Positions 1 to 10,089 are shown, counted from the first letter of the stretch. The stretch: DNA of 64,000 nt from Planctomycetota bacterium (GCA_038213805.1 JBBQSO010000007.1:1-64000), one strand, 5' to 3'. Made by a program: numbers and translations. The notes: generated by a model from the sequence alone, not told the origin.

Positions 1-343
1 GATTGTCAACACGATACAGGCTGTAATTTTTTGGTAAGAACCAGACAGGCATGGAAGGATGATGTATTTCTTTCACCAAGCACAGACGGTGCTCGAAGTC
101 GGCCACCCAGGGAAAGTGATCAAGAACATGCTTTGGTTCAAAGGAATTGGATCGAAGGTCGAAATATCCTTGTCTATGAGACGTCGCCAATACCCATAAA
201 CCACAAGAAAATTCATAGCACCAATAATCACATGGTCCCGCTTCACCATCCCCCGTTTCGTTAGTTGAATGTGGATTTCCCAGTTTACTTACAATAATTT
301 TAGGATCGATTTGCGCACCTATTATTGTAGAATCTACAATCAC
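1..343 (-). CDS. Cassette 8 hypothetical protein (3'-partial, not in ORF track)
   Basis: Manual translation from GTG 343 gives VIVDSTIIGAQIDPKIIVSKLGNPHST...YSLYRVDN, open to position 1. An in-frame ATG at 370 is separated from it by TAA. Confidence 0.6.
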   Translation of the reverse strand, partial: MIVDSTIIGAQIDPKIIVSKLGNPHSTNETGDGEAGPCDYWCYEFSCGLWVLATSHRQGYFDLRSNSFEPKHVLDHFPWVADFEHRLCLVKEIHHPSMPVWFLPKNYSLYRVDN

Positions 344-374
344 TTCTTATGGCGGATCACGCTTTTTCATTCAG

Positions 375-585
375 GCCTAACATAGAGGTAACGGGGGCCA
401 TGGCCGATTGGCGTAGCATGCAGAAGGCCCGTCGTGGGCAATTGGAAAGACACCCGAGCACAAGTGGCGTGCCACCTAGCCGCGGCGGAGCGAGCAAAGC
501 GAGTGAGCACGGCGTAGTGGCATGCCACTTGTGCGGACAGTCGGAGCGTGAAGCCCATGGGCTCCCGTTCACCGACTGGTTAGAA
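375..585 (-). repeat. attC site 1 (211 bp)
   Basis: Minus strand TTCTAAC-CAGTC-GGTGAACG...CGTTACC-TCTAT-GTTAGGC; imperfect inverted repeat with R and L boxes. Confidence 0.93.
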
Positions 586-607
586 CGTAGCACTATTCCA
601 TCGATGG

Positions 608-853
608 TCACTTATCGTCTTCAGAATATTGCGGATCATTTTTCCTTGAAGACTTAGGGAATATTTTCCTATCAACCATTAGTCCAATCAGGAGGCCTGA
701 AATGAATCCATACAACGCAGCCTGTAATGAGAGCCATATGTTGATCCAGTTGCCAAAAATTATATAGAATACGGTGATACTAAGGATCCAGCAAAAAATT
801 CCGATTTTTAACCCTATCCGTATAGACCAAAACAAATGAGATTTTCTAGTCAT
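608..853 (-). CDS. Cassette 7 small membrane protein
   Basis: 81-aa ORF with two hydrophobic segments, fills the cassette. Confidence 0.7.
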   Translation of the reverse strand: MTRKSHLFWSIRIGLKIGIFCWILSITVFYIIFGNWINIWLSLQAALYGFISGLLIGLMVDRKIFPKSSRKNDPQYSEDDK

Positions 854-915
854 AGAAGACTTCTAGAGAAACTAAACCCTTTTACAACGAATCGCGTACG
901 GTCCAGGAGGTAAGA

Positions 916-1128
916 GTCTAACATAGAGGTAACGGGGGCCATGGCCGATTAGGCGTCAGTGTGCACAGCGCCCGTTGTGGGCAATTGGAAAGGCGCACGA
1001 GCGCATGTGGCGTGACGCCTTGCCGCGGCGGAGCGAGGCCCCCGAGTGAGCACGGCGTAGCGGCATGCCACTTGCGCGGCGAGCTGGAACGACCAGCCCA
1101 TGGGCTCCCGTTCACCGACTGGTTAGGC
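916..1128 (-). repeat. attC site 2 (213 bp)
   Basis: Same repeat family; GCCTAAC...GTTAGAC on minus strand. Confidence 0.93.
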
Positions 1129-1143
1129 CGATCTAATGTAATT

Positions 1144-1608
1144 TTAATTCCCAAACCTAGGCTTACGGCCATGGATAATTTCGAGCAAGGTAAATTCACC
1201 GAAGCGGTCACCAGTAAATAATTGAAGCGAAGTTTTTCCCGATACCCATGTTAATATTGGCATTACCAGAGCGCTGTCATTCATTGTTATTTCACATGGA
1301 TTTCCAAATTCATTTGATAAATGTTTCTTCATAAATTCATACTGATCTAGCGAATCTACCATATTTTTATTTACATTTTTATTTAGTGACACCGTAACAG
1401 AATCCAAGGTTACACCATTCGGTAAATAAGCCAATAAATCACAATTTATCCCATTGAATACCTTGCTTGACCATACAATTCTTGTTTGATCTAATGGATC
1501 ATTATAATGCCTTGGATTGCCAACTTCCCACGCGTCATTACAAGCAATTCCCCATGGCAAATATGAGCCACAATCTTCGAGACAAATACCGATACTCATA
1601 TCAATCAT
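1144..1608 (-). CDS. Cassette 6 hypothetical protein
   Basis: 154-aa AT-rich ORF bounded by attC2 and attC3. Confidence 0.75.
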   Translation of the reverse strand: MIDMSIGICLEDCGSYLPWGIACNDAWEVGNPRHYNDPLDQTRIVWSSKVFNGINCDLLAYLPNGVTLDSVTVSLNKNVNKNMVDSLDQYEFMKKHLSNEFGNPCEITMNDSALVMPILTWVSGKTSLQLFTGDRFGEFTLLEIIHGRKPRFGN

Positions 1609-1618
1609 ATTGTACTAG

Positions 1619-1829
1619 GCCTAACATAGAGGTAACGGGGGCCATGGCCGATATGACGCAGCATGGACAGCCCACGTGGTGGGCAATTGGAAAGAGGCCC
1701 GAGCGCAAGTGGCGTGCCGCATAGCCGCGGCGGAGCGAGTCTGCGAGTGAGCACGGCGTAGCGGCATGCCACTTGCGCGGCGAGTTGGAACGACCAGCCC
1801 ATGGGCTCCCGTTCACCGACTGGTTAGGC
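1619..1829 (-). repeat. attC site 3 (211 bp)
   Basis: Same repeat family; GCCTAAC...GTTAGGC. Confidence 0.93.
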
Positions 1830-1837
1830 AAATGTTA

Positions 1838-2206
1838 CTATTGATAATCACCACAACATTTTATGTGTTCGCGAAATGCAAACCCAGATTCTACAAAGAA
1901 TCCATCCTGGGCGGGAAAAACAAAATTGGGCTTTCCCCCATCACCGCCGTCCCAAATCATGCTGAGATAAGCGCGCTCTTTAACTTTTAATTCCCTAAAT
2001 TCACTGCCATCGACTTTAACAAATGGGAATGGCGTCCGATGAACAGCTGCGAGCGCCTGAGAAACCACTGCACTGATAAGAGCAGAGTCACTTACCCCGT
2101 TCTTTTCAAGATAATGGATATACCCCGGGCTCTCGCAGTCGTCATTCATCAAATCTAAGAACGTATTCCAAATATAAATATGAAGTGGTGATGGTTTCAT
2201 ATCCAT
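1838..2206 (-). CDS. Cassette 5 hypothetical protein
   Basis: MDMKPSPLHIYIW..., 122 aa; in frame with the attC4 ATG. Confidence 0.75.
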   Translation of the reverse strand: MDMKPSPLHIYIWNTFLDLMNDDCESPGYIHYLEKNGVSDSALISAVVSQALAAVHRTPFPFVKVDGSEFRELKVKERAYLSMIWDGGDGGKPNFVFPAQDGFFVESGFAFREHIKCCGDYQ

Positions 2207-2212
2207 GGGTTG

Positions 2213-2423
2213 GCCTAACATAGAGGTAACGGGGGCCATGGCCGATATGGCGTAGCATGCACGGCGCCCGTGGTGGGCAATTGGAAAGGCCCCCGAGCGC
2301 AAGTGGCGTGCCGCCTAGCCGCGGCGGAGCGAGTCTGCGAGTGAGCACGGCGTAGCGGCATGCCACTTGCGCGGCGAGTCGGAGCAAACAGCCCATGGGC
2401 TCCCGTTCACCGACTGGTTAGCC
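2213..2423 (-). repeat. attC site 4 (211 bp)
   Basis: Same repeat family; GGCTAAC...GTTAGGC. Confidence 0.93.
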
Positions 2424-2459
2424 ACGGTTTCGTTAGTTTTTCGTAAATGACCATGTCAT

Positions 2460-2888
2460 CTATTCAATGATGCGAGGTATGAACAGATCGCGTGGATAAA
2501 CGCGATCAAATGCCAGAAGGTCGGCCAATACTGTTACGAAGTCCGGTCGGAAGATGGTCGTATAGTCGACCACGAAGACTTGGCCATCACTTCGCACAAT
2601 CGTGAGATGCAACACTGGAGCAGGTCCGACAGGCTGCGAACCGCCATGCAAATCTAAGACATCAAGTGCGACCAGGCGCCCATGGAACTCCGGAAAATCC
2701 CGGAATTGCGTCATAGAAAGGTGTATGTTTGTCGCATCAGCCGATTCACCAATTTTAGATGCGCTTACATTTACGTTTTCAGCGGGACTTTTTGAAACCT
2801 GGTTTTCTGGCCTGCGGCTTGCGCACCCGGAAATAAAACTGGCTGATGCACAGAAATAAATGATAGGACGCAGCCAAGTCATTCGCAT
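2460..2888 (-). CDS. Cassette 4 putative lipoprotein
   Basis: MRMTWLRPIIYFCASASFISGC: basic N-terminus, hydrophobic stretch and lipobox-like SGC. Confidence 0.7.
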   Translation of the reverse strand: MRMTWLRPIIYFCASASFISGCASRRPENQVSKSPAENVNVSASKIGESADATNIHLSMTQFRDFPEFHGRLVALDVLDLHGGSQPVGPAPVLHLTIVRSDGQVFVVDYTTIFRPDFVTVLADLLAFDRVYPRDLFIPRIIE

Positions 2889-2912
2889 ACGATTAATGCG
2901 TGAGATGGAGAA

Positions 2913-3124
2913 GGCTAACATAGAGGTAACGGGGGCCATGGCCGATTAGGCGTCAGCATGCACAGCGCCCGTCGTGGGCAATTGGAAAGACGCCCTAGCG
3001 CAAGTGGCGTGACGCCTAGCCGCGGCGGAGCGAGTGTGCGAGTGAGCACGGCGTAGCGGCATGCCACTTGCGCGGGCAGTTGGAACGACCAGCCCATGGG
3101 CTCCCGTTCACCGACTGGTTAGAC
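2913..3124 (-). repeat. attC site 5 (212 bp)
   Basis: Same repeat family; GTCTAAC...GTTAGCC. Confidence 0.93.
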
Positions 3125-3486
3125 TGAACTTTTGATATCCAATATCCGCCACCAGCCGAAGGATCAGGGACGTACAATCTATTTTCTTCGCACTTGATTT
3201 CATCGAACGAAAAGTCATAGAATAAGTCAATGGATATAGTTCGTATTAGCGCGCCATTTTTATATATTTTGATCCGATTGTCTGTACTTTGGAATATATA
3301 TAACCCAAATATTGGGATATATATTACATTGTTGTCTGTTATTCCATAAACCGCCTCAACTTTATAAGGTCCATATGCCTTTGATTCATGGGGTGTAGCA
3401 ATTCGCCATTTACATGCGGCAATTTGTGCAGCATACAAAATAAACAAAAAACCCAATGCGATTATCCATTTCGTCTTAGAAGGCAT
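3016..3486 (-). CDS. Cassette 3 exported or membrane-anchored hypothetical protein (reads into attC5)
   Basis: N-terminal signal/TM segment (MPSKTKWIIALGFLFILYAAQ); last ~35 codons are attC-derived. Confidence 0.7.
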   Translation of the reverse strand: MPSKTKWIIALGFLFILYAAQIAACKWRIATPHESKAYGPYKVEAVYGITDNNVIYIPIFGLYIFQSTDNRIKIYKNGALIRTISIDLFYDFSFDEIKCEENRLYVPDPSAGGGYWISKVQSNQSVNGSPWAGRSNCPRKWHAATPCSLAHSLRRG

Positions 3487-3493
3487 GGCGACG

Positions 3494-3706
3494 GTCTAAC
3501 ATAGAGGTAACGGGGGCCATGGCCGATATGGCGTCAGTGTGCACTGCGCCCGTCGTGGGCAATTGGAAAGACGCCCGAGCGCAAGTGGCGTGACGCCTAG
3601 CCGCGGCGGAGCGAGCAAAGCGAGTGAGCACGGCGTAGCGGCATGCCACTTGTGCGGACAGCCGGAGCGAGAAGCCCATGGGCTCCCGTTCACCGACTGG
3701 TTAGAC
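3494..3706 (-). repeat. attC site 6 (213 bp)
   Basis: Same repeat family; GTCTAAC...GTTAGAC. Confidence 0.93.
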
Positions 3707-3718
3707 AAAACGGAACCC

Positions 3719-4033
3719 CTATCCACGGATTGAGCACCATAAGGTAGGATAGTACCGCCCTGATCTAAATCTGATAACGTTCCATTTAATTATAAAAAAT
3801 CCATTGTCTGTAATGTCTTTAAAGATCTGGCGGCGTGACGTATAAACATTTGCAAAGCTCTTACCAAAAACACAAAGTGAAGCCCTTGAATTCAGACCAT
3901 ACCCGTCGATGTAGAACCCGCCTATCTCGTCTTTATCGTATCCATACTTTAGCCAAACGTTCCAATTTGATAGACCTTGTTTCCCTCTAAACACAACTTG
4001 AAGCAAATTAGGCCTTGGTGTTTTGTCTAACAT
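3719..4033 (-). CDS. Cassette 2 hypothetical protein (ATG supplied by upstream attC7)
   Basis: Frame is open across the whole cassette; the only in-frame ATGs lie in attC7 (4033, 4051). Confidence 0.55.
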   Translation of the reverse strand: MLDKTPRPNLLQVVFRGKQGLSNWNVWLKYGYDKDEIGGFYIDGYGLNSRASLCVFGKSFANVYTSRRQIFKDITDNGFFIIKWNVIRFRSGRYYPTLWCSIRG

Positions 4034-4236
4034 AGAGGTAACGGGGGCCATGGCCGATTAGGCGTTAGCATGCGCAGCGCCCGTCGTGGGCAATTGGAAA
4101 GACGCCCGAGCGCAAGTGGCGTGCTGCTTAGCCGCGGCGGAGCGAGTCTGCGAGTGAGCACGGCGTAGCGGCATGCCACTTGCGCGGAGAGTTGGAACGA
4201 TCAGCCCATGGGCTCCCGTTCACCGACTGGTTAGAC
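4025..4236 (-). repeat. attC site 7 (212 bp)
   Basis: Same repeat family; GTCTAAC...GTTAGAC. Confidence 0.93.
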
Positions 4237-4238
4237 GA

Positions 4239-4580
4239 TCACTTGATATTTAATAGCGCGCCCACATCAATGCTAAAGTTTTTCCTTAAGTATGGGATTA
4301 CGACCGAATTGTAGCCGTCTCGATTCCTGAAAACTTCCCAGTCAGCTGCATCAACAACGGAATACCTAACGCCTTTATTCTTCAACGCATCAATGAGATT
4401 AGCCCTATTACTATTACCTAATCCGCTAAATTTGAATTCACATTTACCAAGAGCTAAGTCTTGCCGAGCCTCTGTGACACCACATTCAAATGCCATGGAT
4501 ACCTGATATAATTTTACGCCGGTCGGAACGGCAATCCCAAGTACAATAAGAAGCGCAATAATTACCAGCGACTTAGGCAT
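4239..4580 (-). CDS. Cassette 1 membrane-anchored or exported hypothetical protein
   Basis: 113 aa with N-terminal hydrophobic helix; first cassette after attI. Confidence 0.75.
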   Translation of the reverse strand: MPKSLVIIALLIVLGIAVPTGVKLYQVSMAFECGVTEARQDLALGKCEFKFSGLGNSNRANLIDALKNKGVRYSVVDAADWEVFRNRDGYNSVVIPYLRKNFSIDVGALLNIK

Positions 4581-4584
4581 GAGC

Positions 4585-4676
4585 GTCTAACATGGTATGG
4601 GACCTCGAATCAGGATGATAATGCATCAAAATACCCATTTGAAGCGCCCTAACCAGTCCCATGGCCGTGTTAGGGT
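4585..4676 (-). other. attI site (core GTTAGAC at 4591-4585; upstream extent uncertain)
   Basis: GTTRRRY core matches the R'' of attC7 (CGTCTAAC/GTTAGACG) but is not part of a full attC; lies between the array and the intI 5' end. Confidence 0.8.
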
Positions 4677-4888
4677 GTGTTGAGAGTCACCTGGAAGGCC
4701 GGATGTGAGGCCTTTGGGTTGGGTGTCCTGATCCTGGCCCTTGCCGGTTTTGTTTCTGAATTTTGGGTATCGTGTCGACAACTTCACTATTTCCTGCATT
4801 CCTTGGGAATTCGGCAATCGGGATTGGGCAAACTCGGGCTTGCGTGGGGTTGGTCGTCATGATGATAGGGTTGTTATGGACCTATTTT

Positions 4889-5992
4889 ATGACTGATGCC
4901 GCGAATCCACGACCTGGTCGCCGAGATGACCCGACCGCTGTGGAGTTACTCGCTGAGCAGCAGGCCGCGCCTGTCTTGGGCATGGGACACCCCATCCCCC
5001 TGAGCGATCTTGGAGCTGCCATAGAACGGGCCTGCGCCGTGCGGTACTTTTCTAAACGCACCTTCGAAGCCTACCTGGGGTGGGCGCGGCGCTTTGTGAT
5101 GTTTCATGGGCGGCGTCACCCGGCTGAATTGGGGGCGGGTGACGTCACTGCCTACCTGAGCCACCTGGTCGTGGCTGGCAATGTGGCGGCGGCGACGCAG
5201 TGCCAGGCGCTACAGGCCCTGGTCTTCCTGTATGCGCAGGTGCTTGAACGCCCCTTGCCGGAAGGTGCGCTGCGCATGGTGCGCGCGAAGAAGACCCGGC
5301 GCCTGCCCACCGTGCTGTCGCAGGAACAGGTCGCGGCCTTCTTCGACCACATCGCAGGAGTGCCACGCCTGGTCGCGCTGCTGCAGTATGGCGGTGGGCT
5401 GCGCCTGCTCGAGACCCTGCGACTGCGCACCAAGGATCTGGATCTGGAGCGGTGCATGGTGGTGGTGCGCAGTGGCAAGGGCGGCAAGGACCGCATGGTG
5501 CCGCTGCCGGCGGTCGCGGTGGCGCCGCTGCGCGAGCACCTGCGGGTGCGCCATCAACAATACCTGATCGACCGCGAGCGCGGTGAGGCTGCGGTGAACA
5601 TGCCCCAGGCCATGGCGCGCAAGGGGCCCACGCTCGCACACCAATGGCCTTGGCAGTATGTCTTCGCCAGCCAGCGGATCAGTCGCGATCCGCTGGATGG
5701 CAGGCCCAAGCGCCACCACCTGGATGAGAACCACATCCAGGCCACCTACCGACTCGCCTACCGCGCGGCTGGCATCCTGGTACCGGCCTGCACCCACACG
5801 CTGCGCCACTGCTTCGCGACCCACCTGCTGGAACGTGGACAAGACCTGCGCTCCATCCAAGAACTGCTCGGGCACAGCGACATCACCACGACTATGATCT
5901 ACACCCACGTCTCGACGCGTGGGCCGGGTGGCGTGACCAGCCCCGCAGATGACCTGTTCGGAAAATTCGCGGCCGCGCGCAGCAAGCACTAA
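4889..5992 (+). CDS. intI: Integron integrase (tyrosine recombinase)
   Basis: N-terminal Phage_int_SAM-like region (YFSKRTFEAY...RHPAELG); catalytic R (GLRLLE), K (GKGGKDR), HTLRH, LLGH, TTMIYTHV; IntI-specific insert MPQAMARKGP...WPWQYVF...RHHL. Confidence 0.96.
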   Translation: MTDAANPRPGRRDDPTAVELLAEQQAAPVLGMGHPIPLSDLGAAIERACAVRYFSKRTFEAYLGWARRFVMFHGRRHPAELGAGDVTAYLSHLVVAGNVAAATQCQALQALVFLYAQVLERPLPEGALRMVRAKKTRRLPTVLSQEQVAAFFDHIAGVPRLVALLQYGGGLRLLETLRLRTKDLDLERCMVVVRSGKGGKDRMVPLPAVAVAPLREHLRVRHQQYLIDRERGEAAVNMPQAMARKGPTLAHQWPWQYVFASQRISRDPLDGRPKRHHLDENHIQATYRLAYRAAGILVPACTHTLRHCFATHLLERGQDLRSIQELLGHSDITTTMIYTHVSTRGPGGVTSPADDLFGKFAAARSKH

Positions 5993-6151
5993 CCCTGCGT
6001 CGTCGCGCGGTCGGCGGTCGCCTACCAAAAAGGCGGGCACGCGGCAGCGCGGTCGCACCGTCTTGGTGGTGAGATCGGGCCATCAGCGAGATCGAACCCG
6101 AGGCTTCCGCTCCGGCCAGCGATCGCTGACAACGACAGTCGCACCTGTGCG

Positions 6152-7585
6152 CTACGCCACCACCCCCCGCACCACCTCCCCAGCCACATCCGTGAGCCGG
6201 AACTGCCGCCCCTGGTACCGGTAGGTCAGCCGCGTGTGGTCGATGCCCATCAGGTGCAGGATGGTCGCCTGCAGGTCGTGGACCTTCACCGGGTCCTTGA
6301 CGACGCTGTAGGCGAAGTCGTCGGTCTCGCCGTGCACGTGGCCGGCCTTGGCGCCGCCGCCCGCCAGCCACAGGCTGTAGGCGCCGCCGAAGTGGTCGCG
6401 GCCGTGGGCGGACGGTTTGGTGACGTCGCCCTGGACGAAGACCGTGCGGCCGAACTCAGTGCCCCACACCACCAGGGTGTCGTCGAGCATGCCGCGCTGC
6501 TTGAGGTCCATGACCAGGCCGGCGCTCGGCTGGTCGGTGTCGCGGCACTGCTCGGCGAGCTGGGTGTCGAGGTTCCCGTGCTGGTCCCAGCCGCTGTGCA
6601 TGAGCTGCGTGCAGCGCACTCCGCGTTCGGCGAGTCGGCGAGCCAGCAGGCAGTGGAAGGCAAAGCTGCCGCGACGCAGCACGTCGGGGCCGTAGAGGTC
6701 CAGGACATGCTTGGGCTCCTTGCTGATGTCGAGCAGTTCGGGCACGCTCGCCTGCATCTGGTAGCTCATCTCGTACTGGGCGATGCGCGTGTCGATCTCG
6801 GGGTCGCCCTGCTGCTGCAGGCGGTGGCGGTTGAGGTCGCCGAGGTCGTCGAGCAGGTCGCGCTTCTGCGCGCGGCTGATGCCGGCGGGGTCGCCCAGGT
6901 ACAGCACCGGCTCGCCTTCGCCGCGCAGGCGCACGCCCTGGAAACGCGAAGGGATGAAGCCGCTGCCCCAGTAGTGCTCGTAGAACAGCTGGCCGCAGGT
7001 GCGCTTGACGTCGGTCGAGGTCATCACTACGTAGCCGGGCAGGTCTGCGGCCTGCGCACCGAGCGCGTAGGTCAGCCACGCGCCCAGGCTGGGCCGGCCC
7101 GGCACCTGCGCGCCGGTCATCGCCAGGGTGACGCCCGGCGAGTGGTTGACCGCCTCGGTCTGCATCGAGCGGATCAGGCACAGGTCGTCGGCGATCGCAC
7201 CGATGCCGGGCAGCATGCTGCTCATCCAGGTGCCGGACTTGCCATACGCCTGGAACGGCTTCAGCGCGGGCAGGATCGGATAGGACTTCTGGCTGGAGGT
7301 CATCGCAGAAAGACGCACGCCGCTGCGCACCGAATCGGGCAGGTCTTTCAGGCGCATCGCCTCCAGACCGGGCTTGTGGTCGAAGAGGTCGACGTGCGAG
7401 GCGCCGCCCCCCTGCCACAGCACGATCACGCGCTTGGCCTTCGCGGGGAAGTGCGGCAGTCCGGGGATGCCGCCCACCCGCGCCGCGAGCGGTTCGTCGG
7501 CGCGCAGCAGACCGCTGGGCGCGAGCGCGGCCAAGCCGAGGCCGGCGGCGGCGTGGGCCAGGAACTGGCGGCGGGTGGCGTTCAT
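6152..7585 (-). CDS. DUF1501 domain protein (Tat-exported, sulfatase-like)
   Basis: RRQFL Tat motif, AKAKRVIVL..GGASHVDLFD, WDQH, EFGRT, GRDH. Confidence 0.9.
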   Translation of the reverse strand: MNATRRQFLAHAAAGLGLAALAPSGLLRADEPLAARVGGIPGLPHFPAKAKRVIVLWQGGGASHVDLFDHKPGLEAMRLKDLPDSVRSGVRLSAMTSSQKSYPILPALKPFQAYGKSGTWMSSMLPGIGAIADDLCLIRSMQTEAVNHSPGVTLAMTGAQVPGRPSLGAWLTYALGAQAADLPGYVVMTSTDVKRTCGQLFYEHYWGSGFIPSRFQGVRLRGEGEPVLYLGDPAGISRAQKRDLLDDLGDLNRHRLQQQGDPEIDTRIAQYEMSYQMQASVPELLDISKEPKHVLDLYGPDVLRRGSFAFHCLLARRLAERGVRCTQLMHSGWDQHGNLDTQLAEQCRDTDQPSAGLVMDLKQRGMLDDTLVVWGTEFGRTVFVQGDVTKPSAHGRDHFGGAYSLWLAGGGAKAGHVHGETDDFAYSVVKDPVKVHDLQATILHLMGIDHTRLTYRYQGRQFRLTDVAGEVVRGVVA

Positions 7586-10089
7586 TGACGGCTCACGGTC
7601 TCATCAAGGTTGAGGATGGCGAGGCATACCGCGGCGTTGGCGGCGAGCTCCACTGCGTCCAGCGCGGGGTCGGCGCGCATCGCGCCGACGGCGAGGAATG
7701 CAGCGGCGGCGGCGGGATCAGCCTGGAAGCGCGCGCGCTGCTTCGCTTGGCTGCGCGCAAGCAATGCGGTCTCAGCTGCGTCCGGCCAGCGCGCCAGCAC
7801 GCGGCGGAACGCCGTGGGCAGGCGCCGCTCCGCCGGCTCGCCGAGCACGCGCTGCGCAAGCAGGCGCGCGGCCTCGACGAAGGTCGGGTCGTTGAGCGTG
7901 GTCAGCGCGTGCAGTGGCGTGCTGGTGGCGGCAGTGCGGACTTTGCAGGTCTGGCGCGCGGACGCGTCGAACATGTTGGCCGGGGCCACGGTGCGCCGCC
8001 AGAAGGTGTAGAGGCTGCGCCGGTAGAGGTCGGGGCCGCTCGACTGCGGGTAGGTGAAGTCGCGCTCCTTGGTGATCGCCAGCGCGTCCCAGATGTCGGC
8101 GGGCTGGTAGGGGTAGACCGGTTTTCCGCCGAGGGCCGGCACCAGCAGGCCGCTCGCCGCCAGCGCCTGGTCGCGGATCAGCATCGCCGGCAGGCGGAAG
8201 CGCGAGGCGCGCGCGAACAGACGGTTCTCGGGGTCGCGCTCGAGCAGGTCCGCGCTGACGCGGCTGGACTGGCGGTAGGTGGCGCTGGTGACGATCAGGC
8301 GCACCAGGCGCTTCATGCCCCAGCCGCCCTCGCGGAAGTCGACCGCCAGCCAGTCGAGCAGGGCGCGGTGGAGCGGCGGCTCGCTCTGCACGCCGAAGTC
8401 CTCGGCGGTCTTGACCAGGCCGAGACCGAAGAACATCTGCCAGATGCGGTTGACCATGACCCGTGCGGTCAGCGGCTGCTCGGCCGCGACCAGCCAGCGC
8501 GCCAGTCCGAGGCGGTTGCGCGGCGCGTCCGCCGGCAGCGGCGGTAGGAAGCCGGGTGGGGCGATCTCGACCGCAGCCAGCGGCTTTTCGTAGTTGCCGC
8601 GCTCCAGCACGTGGGTCTCGCGCGGCTTGGCGTCGGACATCACCATCACCATCGGGTAGTCGTCCTTCAACGCCTCGACCTCGCCCTCGTGCGCCTTCAC
8701 CGCCTGCATGGGCTTGCCGTCGAGGCTGTCGGCGACGCGCGACTCGAAATAGGCCTTCAGTTTTTCAGCGCGCGGCTTGTCGCCGGGATCAACGCAGCGC
8801 CGCAGCAGCTCGCGGATGCCATCGTCGGCGACGCTGTCGTCACCGGCGGCGCGCTCTTCCCATACGGCCTGGGCGCTCTGCAGGGCGGTTTTCGCGGCTG
8901 CGACCGCGCGCTCGGCCGCGGCCTTGCGCTCGCGCTGCTCGGGCGAGGCGGCGTCCAGCAGCGGATCGGCCGGACGCAGGCGATTGCTGATGTGCCCGGC
9001 GGTGCCGGATTCCGGCACGTTGTTGAAGGCGGCCAGCCACGAATAATAGTCGCGCTGGGTGATGGGGTCGTACTTGTGGTCGTGGCACTGCGCGCACGCC
9101 ATGGTCAGGCCGAGGAAGGTGGTGGCGGTGGTGTCGACGCGATCGAAGAGCAGCACGTAGCGCTGCTCTTCGGCGATGTTGCCACCTTCGCCGTTGAGCA
9201 GGCCGCAGCGCACGAAGCCGGTGGCCAGGCGCTGGTCGCGAGTCGCGTCGGGCAGCAGATCGCCGGCGAGCTGCTCGACCGCGAAGCGGTCGAAGGGCAG
9301 GTCATCGTTGAAGGACTTCACCACCCAGTCGCGCCACACCCATTGAAAAGTGTCGCCGTCCTGCTGGAAGCCATTGGAGTCGGCGTAGCGCGCCGCGTCC
9401 AGCCACGGCAGCGCCATGCGCTCGCCGTAATGCGGCGAGGCGAGCAGGCGGTCGACCACGCGCTCGTAGGCGCCCGGTGCGGTGTCGGCGAGAAACGCAT
9501 CGACCTCGGCGGGCTCCGGCGGCAGTCCGGTGAGGTCGAGGGTGAGGCGGCGGACCAGCGTCTCCTTGTCGGCCTCCGGCGCGGGCGCCAGGGCGGAGGA
9601 TTCGAGGCGGGCGAGTACGAAGCGGTCAAGCGGATTGCGCGCCCACGCCGCGGAGCGCACCGCCGGTTCGGCAGGGCGCTGCGGCGCGCTGAACGCCCAG
9701 TGGCCGTCGAAGGGCGCGCCCTCGGCGATCCAGCGCCGCAGCAGCTGCTTCTGGTCATCGGTCAGGGTGCGATGCGACTCCGGCGGCGGCATCTGCTCGT
9801 CAGGATCGGCGCTGCGAATGCGCTTGACGAGTTCGCTGTCGTCGGGCCGACCGGGAATGATCACATCCTTGACGCGCTGCCCAGCGAAGGTGTCGAGGCG
9901 CAGCTTGCCCTTGCGGCGGTTGGCATCCTGTCCGTGGCAGTGGAAGCAGTTCTCGGACAGTAGCGGTCGGATGTCGCGGCCGTAGTCGATCTCCGTCGAG
10001 GTCGCGGCCGCCTGCGCACTGCCGGCGAGCCCAGCCAGGGCCAGAACGGCGGCGAGCGGGAAGGCGGGCGGCAGAACGGGCAGGCGCAT
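7582..10089 (-). CDS. PSD1 and planctomycete cytochrome c domain protein (DUF1549/DUF1553)
   Basis: [58 protein letters not shown]. Confidence 0.92.

Follow-up and report, generated by a model that had tools for sequence, protein, structure and literature searches.

A start codon on the recombination crossover of attI and attC sites in a Planctomycetota chromosomal integron, and its possible use in cassette translation

Introduction

In bacterial operons, the overlap of one gene's stop codon with the start codon of the next (ATGA, TAATG) is an established means of translational coupling. For integrons, the translation of cassettes that lie far from Pc or that have no ribosome-binding site has been studied almost only in class 1. 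There, the attI1 site carries the open reading frames (ORFs) ORF-11, ORF-17 and ORF-18 (Hanau-Bercot et al. 2002; Papagiannitsis et al. 2017), reviewed in PMC8876359 and also mentioned in PMC11511950 and PMC4670013; according to that review (sections 3.1-3.2), ORFs of the ORF-11 type are proposed to feed ribosomes to cassettes without a translation initiation region. The review also cites Jacquier et al. (2009) for a short ORF inside attC that relieves the block imposed by the attC hairpin through termination and reinitiation, and the abstract of PMC2811028 states that attC and attI of class 1 integrons have only three nucleotides in common. Here we analyse a stretch of 64,000 nucleotides (nt) of DNA from a Planctomycetota bacterium (GCA_038213805.1 JBBQSO010000007.1:1-64000, hereafter the window), where an integron carries an ATG over the recombination crossover of its attI and of all its attC sites. 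An earlier note on this DNA had proposed that the ATG fuses to, or couples with, the cassette gene downstream. Our results, drawn from about 80 junctions, suggest that ribosomes may start or re-start at the site ATG for whichever cassette lands behind it.

Results

An ATG on the crossover of attI and attC

All eight junctions of the window (attI and seven attCs) have an ATG whose G lies on the G↓TT crossover (the arrow marks the point of exchange), the joint reading ATG↓TTAG. On the minus strand, where the cassettes are encoded, attI ends in ...CCCATACC ATG TTA GAC or, with a longer upstream stretch, ...GAGGTCCCATACC ATG TTAGAC, and each of the seven attCs ends in ATG GCC CCC GTT ACC TCT ATG TTA G; these end sequences agree with those given in the earlier note (coordinates in Table 1). 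The ATG recurs at 18 of 18 junctions of this genome (G000) and in 52 of the 53 attC ends of the three genomes that hold this attC family (G000, G003 and G010). Because the last ~30 nt of attC are almost invariant within the family, such repetition is uninformative by itself.

We also examined 21 attCs of diverged families, which were found by profile with no requirement for ATG (from G007 = L037/L041, G061 = L042, G425 = L083 and G017 = L121, and from L118 and L120). Sixteen have ATG at the crossover, three GTG and two ACG, and the three spacer bases 5' of the triplet vary freely. Among 14 related integron loci examined for attI, nine have ATG↓TTAG. Eight of these read ACCATG↓TTAG (the window, L038, L039, L040, L041, L083, L121 and L122 = L046); their integrases (IntI) are 66-90% identical and the rest of their attI is unalignable. 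The ninth, L042, reads ACAATG↓TTAGGC. No such attI site was found in the remaining five loci (L043, with 172 nt of flank only, L044, L045, L054 and L058). Other lineages have other triplets, namely TTG in 12 of 13 Pseudoxanthomonas attCs (AATTG↓TT) and TGG or CGG in a betaproteobacterial array. By these comparisons, ATG↓TT is a trait of the clade.

The non-ATG triplets of G007 accompany a changed sequence on the other arm of the site, AAC-AA with GTG (twice) and AAC-TA and AAC-AA with ACG (L041, reverse, at 2844, 2362 and 3753; L037, reverse, at 975), and represent either sub-families or co-variation of the two spacer flanks.

Leader stops lie close to cassette starts

The frame opened by the site ATG (the leader) was compared with the cassette ORF behind it in a set of 87 junctions, or 82 without five near-duplicates (74 attC and 8 attI; 76 with ATG, 4 with GTG and 2 with ACG), five of which came from a pattern requiring RTG. 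The cassette ORF was defined as the longest open frame beginning no more than 100 nt from the joint, and its start as the first ATG (or ATG/GTG) in frame. Joints in the contigs of four DNA runs were left unused, and the loose ends in these contigs, at 30 nt, were too short for ORF calling.

In 25 of 45 out-of-frame cassettes the leader stops within -4 to +8 nt of the cassette start, with 13 of the 25 stops at +1 (NTGA), six at +5, two at +8 and three at -2 to -4. The earlier note had proposed a test of whether leader stops fall near cassette starts more often than in shuffled cassette 5' ends, and they do: when the bases of the 5' untranslated region (UTR) and the codons of the ORF were shuffled, a mean of 12.8 cassettes qualified and 25 was reached in 0 of 5000 shuffles, and without the window junctions the mean was 11.9 against 21 observed, a number reached in 4 of 5000, although this control is too lenient, since the A-rich second codon, a source of frequent NTGA in any case, is lost on shuffling. 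The phase of the ORF provides an internal control, since it alone sets the frame of the site ATG, and the other frame of the same cassettes and the ORFs in other phases can thus serve as controls. In an earlier set of 39 cassettes, the leader frame scored 22 of 39 against 11 of 39 for the other non-ORF frame of the same cassettes, and in the ORF-1 frame the stop fell at +5 or +8 in 8 of 21 cases when that frame was the leader, against 1 of 32 otherwise. The distance from the start to the first stop behaves likewise, with a median in the ORF-1 frame of 12 nt as leader (n = 22) and 56 nt otherwise (n = 39; p = 0.002), and in the ORF+1 frame of 1 nt as leader and 7 nt otherwise (p = 0.03). The combined p value over all junctions is 0.0006 with ATG and GTG starts and 0.004 with ATG only; without the window junctions it is 0.002 and 0.02, and for the diverged attC families alone (n = 24 or 19) 0.04 or 0.16. 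With the phase labels permuted, the values for these three sets are, in the same order, 0.003/0.010, 0.008/0.029 and 0.045/0.047. Leader stops thus lie within a few nt of the start more often than by chance, both in the count of 25 of 45 and against the internal controls, as would be expected of translational coupling.

Most cassette starts lie 13-23 nt behind the crossover, which leaves no room for a ribosome-binding site of their own. Leaders can also be long: in a pair of paralogous cassettes on another contig of this genome (C97), leaders that stay open for 64 and 66 codons end close to the ORF start, the first 6 nt short of it and the second 1 nt past it, although the ORFs differ in phase through an indel. 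On this evidence two things go beyond chance, namely that attI and attCs of diverged families have kept the ATG, and where the leader stops lie. The leader-stop signal is consistent and survives removal of the data that suggested it, but it is still modest, because the numbers are small, the metagenome-assembled genomes (MAGs) are related and the ORFs are orphans.

ORFs that open from the site ATG

Thirteen ORFs open from the site ATG, and seven of them have no ATG within 36 nt. The first possible internal start of frame-0 ORFs lies at a median of 30 nt, compared with 19 nt in the other phases (p = 0.03). A test on the longest open frames, counting those with no ATG within 12 codons, gave 10 of 18 against 9 of 23 and 7 of 23 in the other frames, which is not significant because GTG starts are common in those frames. 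Four frame-0 ORFs begin at the joint with apparent N-terminal export or membrane segments. The clearest (L031, in G003) reads MLDLPKVIIAVLCFSLTGC, a putative lipoprotein-type signal that runs from the site ATG, and if translation began at the next candidate start, a GTG at +30, no more than nine residues would precede the cysteine; the others begin MLAKKWAILAL..., MLANFHFPVARRQLVLISVGIF... and MLATTSRSIGITEKYGRLLSLIVITVGL.... Searches for homologues of three frame-0 ORFs found none, and an exhaustive homologue search with cassette 2 of the window returned three weak, repeat-like matches that are uninformative on the N-terminus. By this evidence, some cassettes have no plausible start other than the site ATG.

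A family of cassettes in G003 begins GCC(N)TCGAAATAGA(A/T)GTGCGG...GTAAATGGCATG and has no convincing ORF (near L031 5940, 8654 and 9734; L033, reverse, 917, 2593 and 4446; L032 2179); these may be gene-less or RNA cassettes.

Cassettes of the window

Five leaders described in the earlier note (MLDAHA, MLDRRHAF, MLGLVQYD, MLGLNEKA and one of 24 codons ending in ATGA) agree with the sequence in content and position. The accompanying statement that the stop of each overlaps a cassette ATG stands for four of them. The exception is the leader at 383, which ends over ATG 370: the frame of that ATG, which is also that of the long cassette 8 ORF, stops after seven codons at a TAA (349..347), and the cassette likely starts at GTG 343, 16 nt beyond the leader. 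That GTG could reflect a nonsense mutation near the N-terminus or be a true GTG start. The frames of cassettes 2, 4 and 5, said to be in frame with the site ATG, are also correct, but cassettes 4 and 5 have an ATG of their own 33 and 15 nt further in, so their fusions are probably incidental. The own ATG of cassette 4 gives MRMTWLRPIIYFCASASFISGC, which looks like a normal lipoprotein-type signal peptide by the lipobox consensus. Cassette 2 has no internal ATG; the first alternatives for a start are a TTG at +27 and a GTG at +39. No Pfam family was found for the eight window cassette ORFs or for one from G003.

The integron and its attC sites

The window covers the initial 64 kb of contig C7 in an assembly of 5.5 Mb and 180 contigs, and the locus is a sedentary chromosomal integron of a Planctomycetota genome. 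The integrase is a tyrosine recombinase of the integron-integrase subfamily, with a TIGR02249 match above the cutoff, and its closest relatives are in Planctomycetota MAGs. The coordinates of intI are those of the longest ORF, and the true start is probably further in. The gene points away from the cassettes, and attI, with its crossover at 4591, separates the two. Relatives of the integrase (E <= 1e-60) occur in 71 of 401 sampled Planctomycetota genomes, several of the 71 with stop codons within the match. Upstream of the attI crossover there is a sigma-70-like TTCAAA-17-TATCAT, in a region where promoter-like matches occur at chance number (9 against 7.1 expected), and an SD-like (Shine-Dalgarno-like) GAGG lies 9 nt 5' of the attI ATG in the window and its two closest relatives, L038 and L039, only.

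Seven cassettes lie behind attI, each ended by an attC, and the array runs off the start of the contig. The same attC family is present on C97 (nine sites and a half site) and on C177 (one site). The C97 piece (1-5814, minus strand) has nine attCs and begins with a truncated attC (its 3' 115 nt) beside unrelated DNA, and the C177 piece (1660-1850) holds a single attC without its 5' end; either the assembly has split one array, or these are attC clusters away from intI. The host DNA beside the array has a G+C content of 0.65-0.74 and the unique parts of the cassettes about 0.33-0.47, and by composition the cassette genes look foreign to this genome. The attCs are GC-rich, the 300-nt bins that contain them having 0.55-0.59 G+C (window 1-9000).

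The window sites are genuine attC sites. R'' (RYYYAAC) pairs with R' (GTTRRRY), followed by an unpaired spacer of 5-6 nt and then a long stem; attC 1 folds with -97.1 kcal/mol as RNA (z -4.2 against shuffles) and with -56.1 kcal/mol as bottom-strand DNA (z -4.8). Each cassette begins with six bases complementary to the R'' of its own attC, exactly in six of seven cases and with one mismatch in the seventh. The cassette ORFs of the window end either 7-40 nt ahead of R'' or within the 5' arm, ~200 nt from the next crossover ATG. Of the two other frames at the joint, frame +1 is always closed by the TAG of GTTAG, the same stop that ends class 1 ORF-11, and frame +2 has another attC ATG ~45 nt upstream (...CATGCTACGCC...) that reads across the joint as MLRHIGHGPRYLYVR. 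In attC 7 and attC 5 a frame (...NQSVNGSPW...) is open through the whole site and leads into the one that the crossover ATG opens (minus strand, 357-611 and 1601-1831).

Among 48 genomes of the order, the family was found in G000, G003 and G010 only, and weakly in G007; it flanks other cassettes in G003, G010 and DNA runs of three studies, and a scan across metagenomes for the 3' arm of attC, in which the spacer could have any bases, returned one locus. At 207-213 nt, the seven window attCs are longer than the 57-141 nt usually quoted for attC and exceed the default size limit of a common attC finder; arrays of this kind may for that reason be under-reported in Planctomycetota. A finder based on R''/R' complementarity and folding, applied to the flanks of 17 distant Planctomycetota integrases, recovered three of seven control attCs and mostly noise in GC-rich DNA, and was dropped.

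Four attCs of G003 are split by insertions of 0.9-1.6 kb with terminal inverted repeats (L031 6376-7253 and 12053-13332; L032 6222-7747 and 10038-11668), three of which contain transposases (DDE_Tnp_1, 5e-25; Mutator family, 1.6e-112; DUF772+DDE, 1e-17). Insertion sequences seem to target or accumulate in the attCs of this genome.

Table 1. Features of the integron in the window (positions from the first letter of the stretch; aa, amino acids)
Feature	Coordinates	Strand	Basis or remark
Cassette 8 ORF	2..343	-	cut by contig end; array continues on C97, C177
Leader MLGLNEKA, then stop	357..383	-	over ATG 370; ends 16 nt before GTG 343
attC 7	375..585	-	nhmmer; ATG 383..381
Cassette 7 ORF, 81 aa, hydrophobic	608..853	-	no Pfam family
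Leader of 24 codons	850..924	-	ends in ATGA overlap with ATG 853
attC 6	916..1128	-	nhmmer; ATG 924..922
Cassette 6 ORF, 154 aa	1144..1608	-	no Pfam family
Leader MLGLVQYD, then stop	1601..1627	-	TGA 5 nt after ATG 1608
attC 5	1619..1829	-	nhmmer; ATG 1627..1625
Cassette 5 ORF, in frame with site ATG	1838..2221	-	own ATGs 2206 (15 nt further in) and 2200
attC 4	2213..2423	-	nhmmer; ATG 2221..2219
Cassette 4 ORF, in frame with site ATG	2460..2921	-	own ATG 2888, 33 nt further in
attC 3	2913..3124	-	nhmmer; ATG 2921..2919
Cassette 3 ORF, 156 aa, ~110 nt into own attC	3016..3486	-	no Pfam family
Leader MLDRRHAF, then stop	3476..3502	-	TAA 8 nt after ATG 3486
attC 2	3494..3706	-	nhmmer; ATG 3502..3500
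Cassette 2 ORF from site ATG, 104 aa	3719..4033	-	no Pfam family
attC 1, R'' GTCTAAC ... R' GTTAGAC	4025..4236	-	nhmmer; ATG 4033..4031
Cassette 1 ORF, 113 aa, hydrophobic N-terminus	4239..4580	-	no Pfam family
Leader 1 MLDAHA, then stop	4573..4593	-	TAA 5 nt after A of cassette-1 ATG 4580
attI end region	4585..4643	-	read from sequence; TTCAAA-17-TATCAT 4643..4615, GAGG 4606..4603, ATG 4593..4591, TTAGAC 4590..4585
intI, integron integrase	4763..5992	+	TIGR02249, E 3e-112, 375 bits against cutoff 265

Discussion

The arrangement at the joints suggests how a recombination site could also serve translation. The crossover G↓TT falls on the third base of the ATG, with A and T (and the G) coming from attI or the upstream attC and TTAGRC from the incoming cassette, and every integration would regenerate ATG-TTA-GRC. 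The RNA behind the crossover ATG is AT-rich cassette sequence, and the host seems to make little use of SD motifs: in a crude count, an SD-like motif precedes the first ATG in 19.9% of 3745 long ORFs and occurs in 9.5% of control windows, and the 16S tail was not found in this check. Because the RNA is AT-rich and SD use looks low, we infer that the site AUG may be the first AUG in accessible RNA after each hairpin, and ribosomes would initiate there. Roughly one cassette in seven to ten would be start-less and use the site ATG, which would make it a 'split start codon'. Most cassettes would have an ATG or GTG of their own 13-40 nt further on, and the site ATG would then open a micro-ORF of 4-24 codons (64-66 in one pair), whose stop would be kept on or just after the cassette start (ATGA, ATGNNTRR, TAATG); the ribosome would terminate and re-start at the cassette start, or at least clear it. 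Initiation at the site ATG, with termination and reinitiation as its benefit, is thus what the data suggest; the earlier note, which derived position-independent initiation from the presence of the ATG in every attC, overstates the case on this point.

Other ways of delivering ribosomes to the joint were considered and rejected. A direct relay of termination and reinitiation from the preceding gene is not supported here, since the upstream stops lie ~200 nt away, before the hairpin. The TAA within R'' could have been the upstream stop facing the ATG across the helix, but the upstream ORFs of the window stop elsewhere. Nor did the attCs contain a recurrent promoter-like match, as would be expected if a promoter inside attC gave a leaderless mRNA starting at the ATG.

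Several observations weigh against a role in translation, and most of them are also what would be expected if the ATG were a by-product of the recombination site, with AT before G↓TT kept for the integrases of the clade or by homogenisation of the attCs, and with no translational effect. On the other attC arm, the two bases that follow AAC (mostly CA) show about the same conservation between families as the AT in front of GTT, and this flank is not explainable by translation. The conservation of AT can therefore be a recombination constraint, and conservation alone cannot separate translation from recombination; other lineages also keep fixed bases before GTT, as the Pseudoxanthomonas attCs do. 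No purine-rich or Shine-Dalgarno motif precedes any attC ATG (...CCCCCGTTACCTCT ATG). The A and U of the attC codon belong to the unpaired spacer and its G to the 7-bp R stem, at the base of the -97 kcal/mol RNA hairpin; structure in mRNA hampers initiation, and de novo binding of 30S subunits at this ATG should for that reason be poor. Some cassettes have a clear SD motif of their own (AAAGGAGA in L041, AAGGAAG in L032). The phase of the cassette ORFs is random, with frames 0, 1 and 2 represented by 19, 25 and 25 of 69 usable junctions (p = 0.37), so that in-frame fusion is not favoured. Among the 45 leaders, 11 end 5-34 nt upstream of the start and nine continue for more than 8 nt inside the ORF. 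NTGA is frequent even without a leader, as 13 of 33 control ORFs have it, for which reason the ORF+1 signal alone is weak (p = 0.03-0.24), and under this explanation A-rich second codons, short 5' UTRs, small numbers and post hoc choices would account for the leader-stop pattern, an account that the p values of 0.04-0.16 in the other attC families alone would also fit. The ORFs and starts were called by simple rules instead of a gene-finding program; the junctions, drawn from some ten MAGs that are related to each other, are non-independent; the range of -4 to +8 was picked after the data were seen, and the distance tests do not use it. All tested cassette ORFs are orphans, and no N-terminus could be checked against homologues. 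The stop test also has no negative-control clade, because the attC finder based on R''/R' folding was dropped. We nevertheless consider a pure by-product rather unlikely. The tests with internal controls still give p = 0.002-0.03 without the window that prompted them, A-rich second codons play no part in the difference in the ORF-1 frame, the site ATG is precisely the first codon of start-less ORFs with signal peptides, and among the profile-found attCs GTG, also a start codon, makes up three of the five triplets other than ATG.

The ATG could instead be translated but merely tolerated: it would exist for recombination, ribosomes would initiate on it as the first AUG that unstructured, AT-rich RNA offers after the hairpin, and resident cassettes would close the junk frame fast so that their own start is unmasked, with no benefit from the leader. 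Such tolerance predicts the same statistics of stop position as a useful leader, explains the random phase together with the leaders that stop well before the start, and agrees with a recombination origin in that both spacer flanks are conserved. It leaves unexplained the seven of 13 frame-0 ORFs that have no other start and the leaders of 64-66 codons that stay open up to the ORF start in two paralogues, and the stops cluster at the overlap geometries of coupled genes (13 at +1) rather than anywhere early; we regard it as improbable. For a site ATG that is both used by ribosomes and useful to the cassettes, we put the chances at about even. The device for translation initiation envisaged in the earlier note accordingly keeps the universal ATG, the excess of stops and the start-less ORFs in its favour, and has the random phase, the lack of an SD motif in attC and the hairpin against it. 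More tentatively, and with somewhat less than an even chance of being right as a whole, the split start codon might be a design principle, in which the crossover lies within a universal ATG of attI and every attC, cassettes travel either start-less (e.g., with a lipoprotein signal that runs from M-L-D at the joint) or coupled to a micro-ORF, and attC acts in a bacterial chromosome both as a recombination site and as a module for the start or re-start of translation.

If the site ATG does serve translation, it would explain how a GC-rich host with little use of SD motifs can express a long chromosomal array whose cassettes are orphan and AT-rich, why cassette starts lie 13-23 nt from the joint, and why some cassettes have no start of their own. 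The last point matters for annotation, where gene callers begin at an ATG internal to attC or truncate the gene. If the ATG is only a by-product, the Planctomycetota sites would have a clade-specific extended core (ACC..ATG↓TTAG) for the recognition of attI and attC.

Compared with ORF-11 and with the short ORF of attC, what is new here is a start codon that straddles the crossover and is present in attI and all attCs of a clade of Planctomycetota chromosomal integrons. A start codon on the attC or attI crossover is not described in the titles and abstract openings of the literature searched, which is no proof that it is unpublished. As with ORF-11, a short ORF borne by the site crosses the crossover and takes its stop from the cassette, and the analogy fits attI best, where in the window an SD-like GAGG lies 9 nt before the ATG. 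ORF-11, in contrast, has its start, along with a GGAG of its own, upstream of the crossover and stops at the TAG of GTTAG, whereas the ATG described here straddles the crossover and has that TAG in another frame (+1); it is also found in every attC as well as in attI, and is the apparent start codon of some cassettes. ORF-11 and the Planctomycetota sites have no sequence relationship, and the latter are known from sequence alone. Like the attC short ORF of Jacquier et al., the start codon carried by attC is proposed to keep ribosomes on a polycistronic mRNA and so aid the next cassette. Their case concerns particular attCs of mobile resistance cassettes and an ORF within attC; here the ATG occupies the last bases of all attCs of the array, its frame lies in the next cassette, and the upstream cassettes stop ~200 nt away, before the hairpin. 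The geometry also resembles the coupling of genes in operons, since 13 of 45 leaders close with an NTGA that overlaps the cassette start and three stop 2-4 nt short of it. Unlike in operons, the upstream partner would not be a gene but a frame of 4-24 codons made by site-specific recombination.

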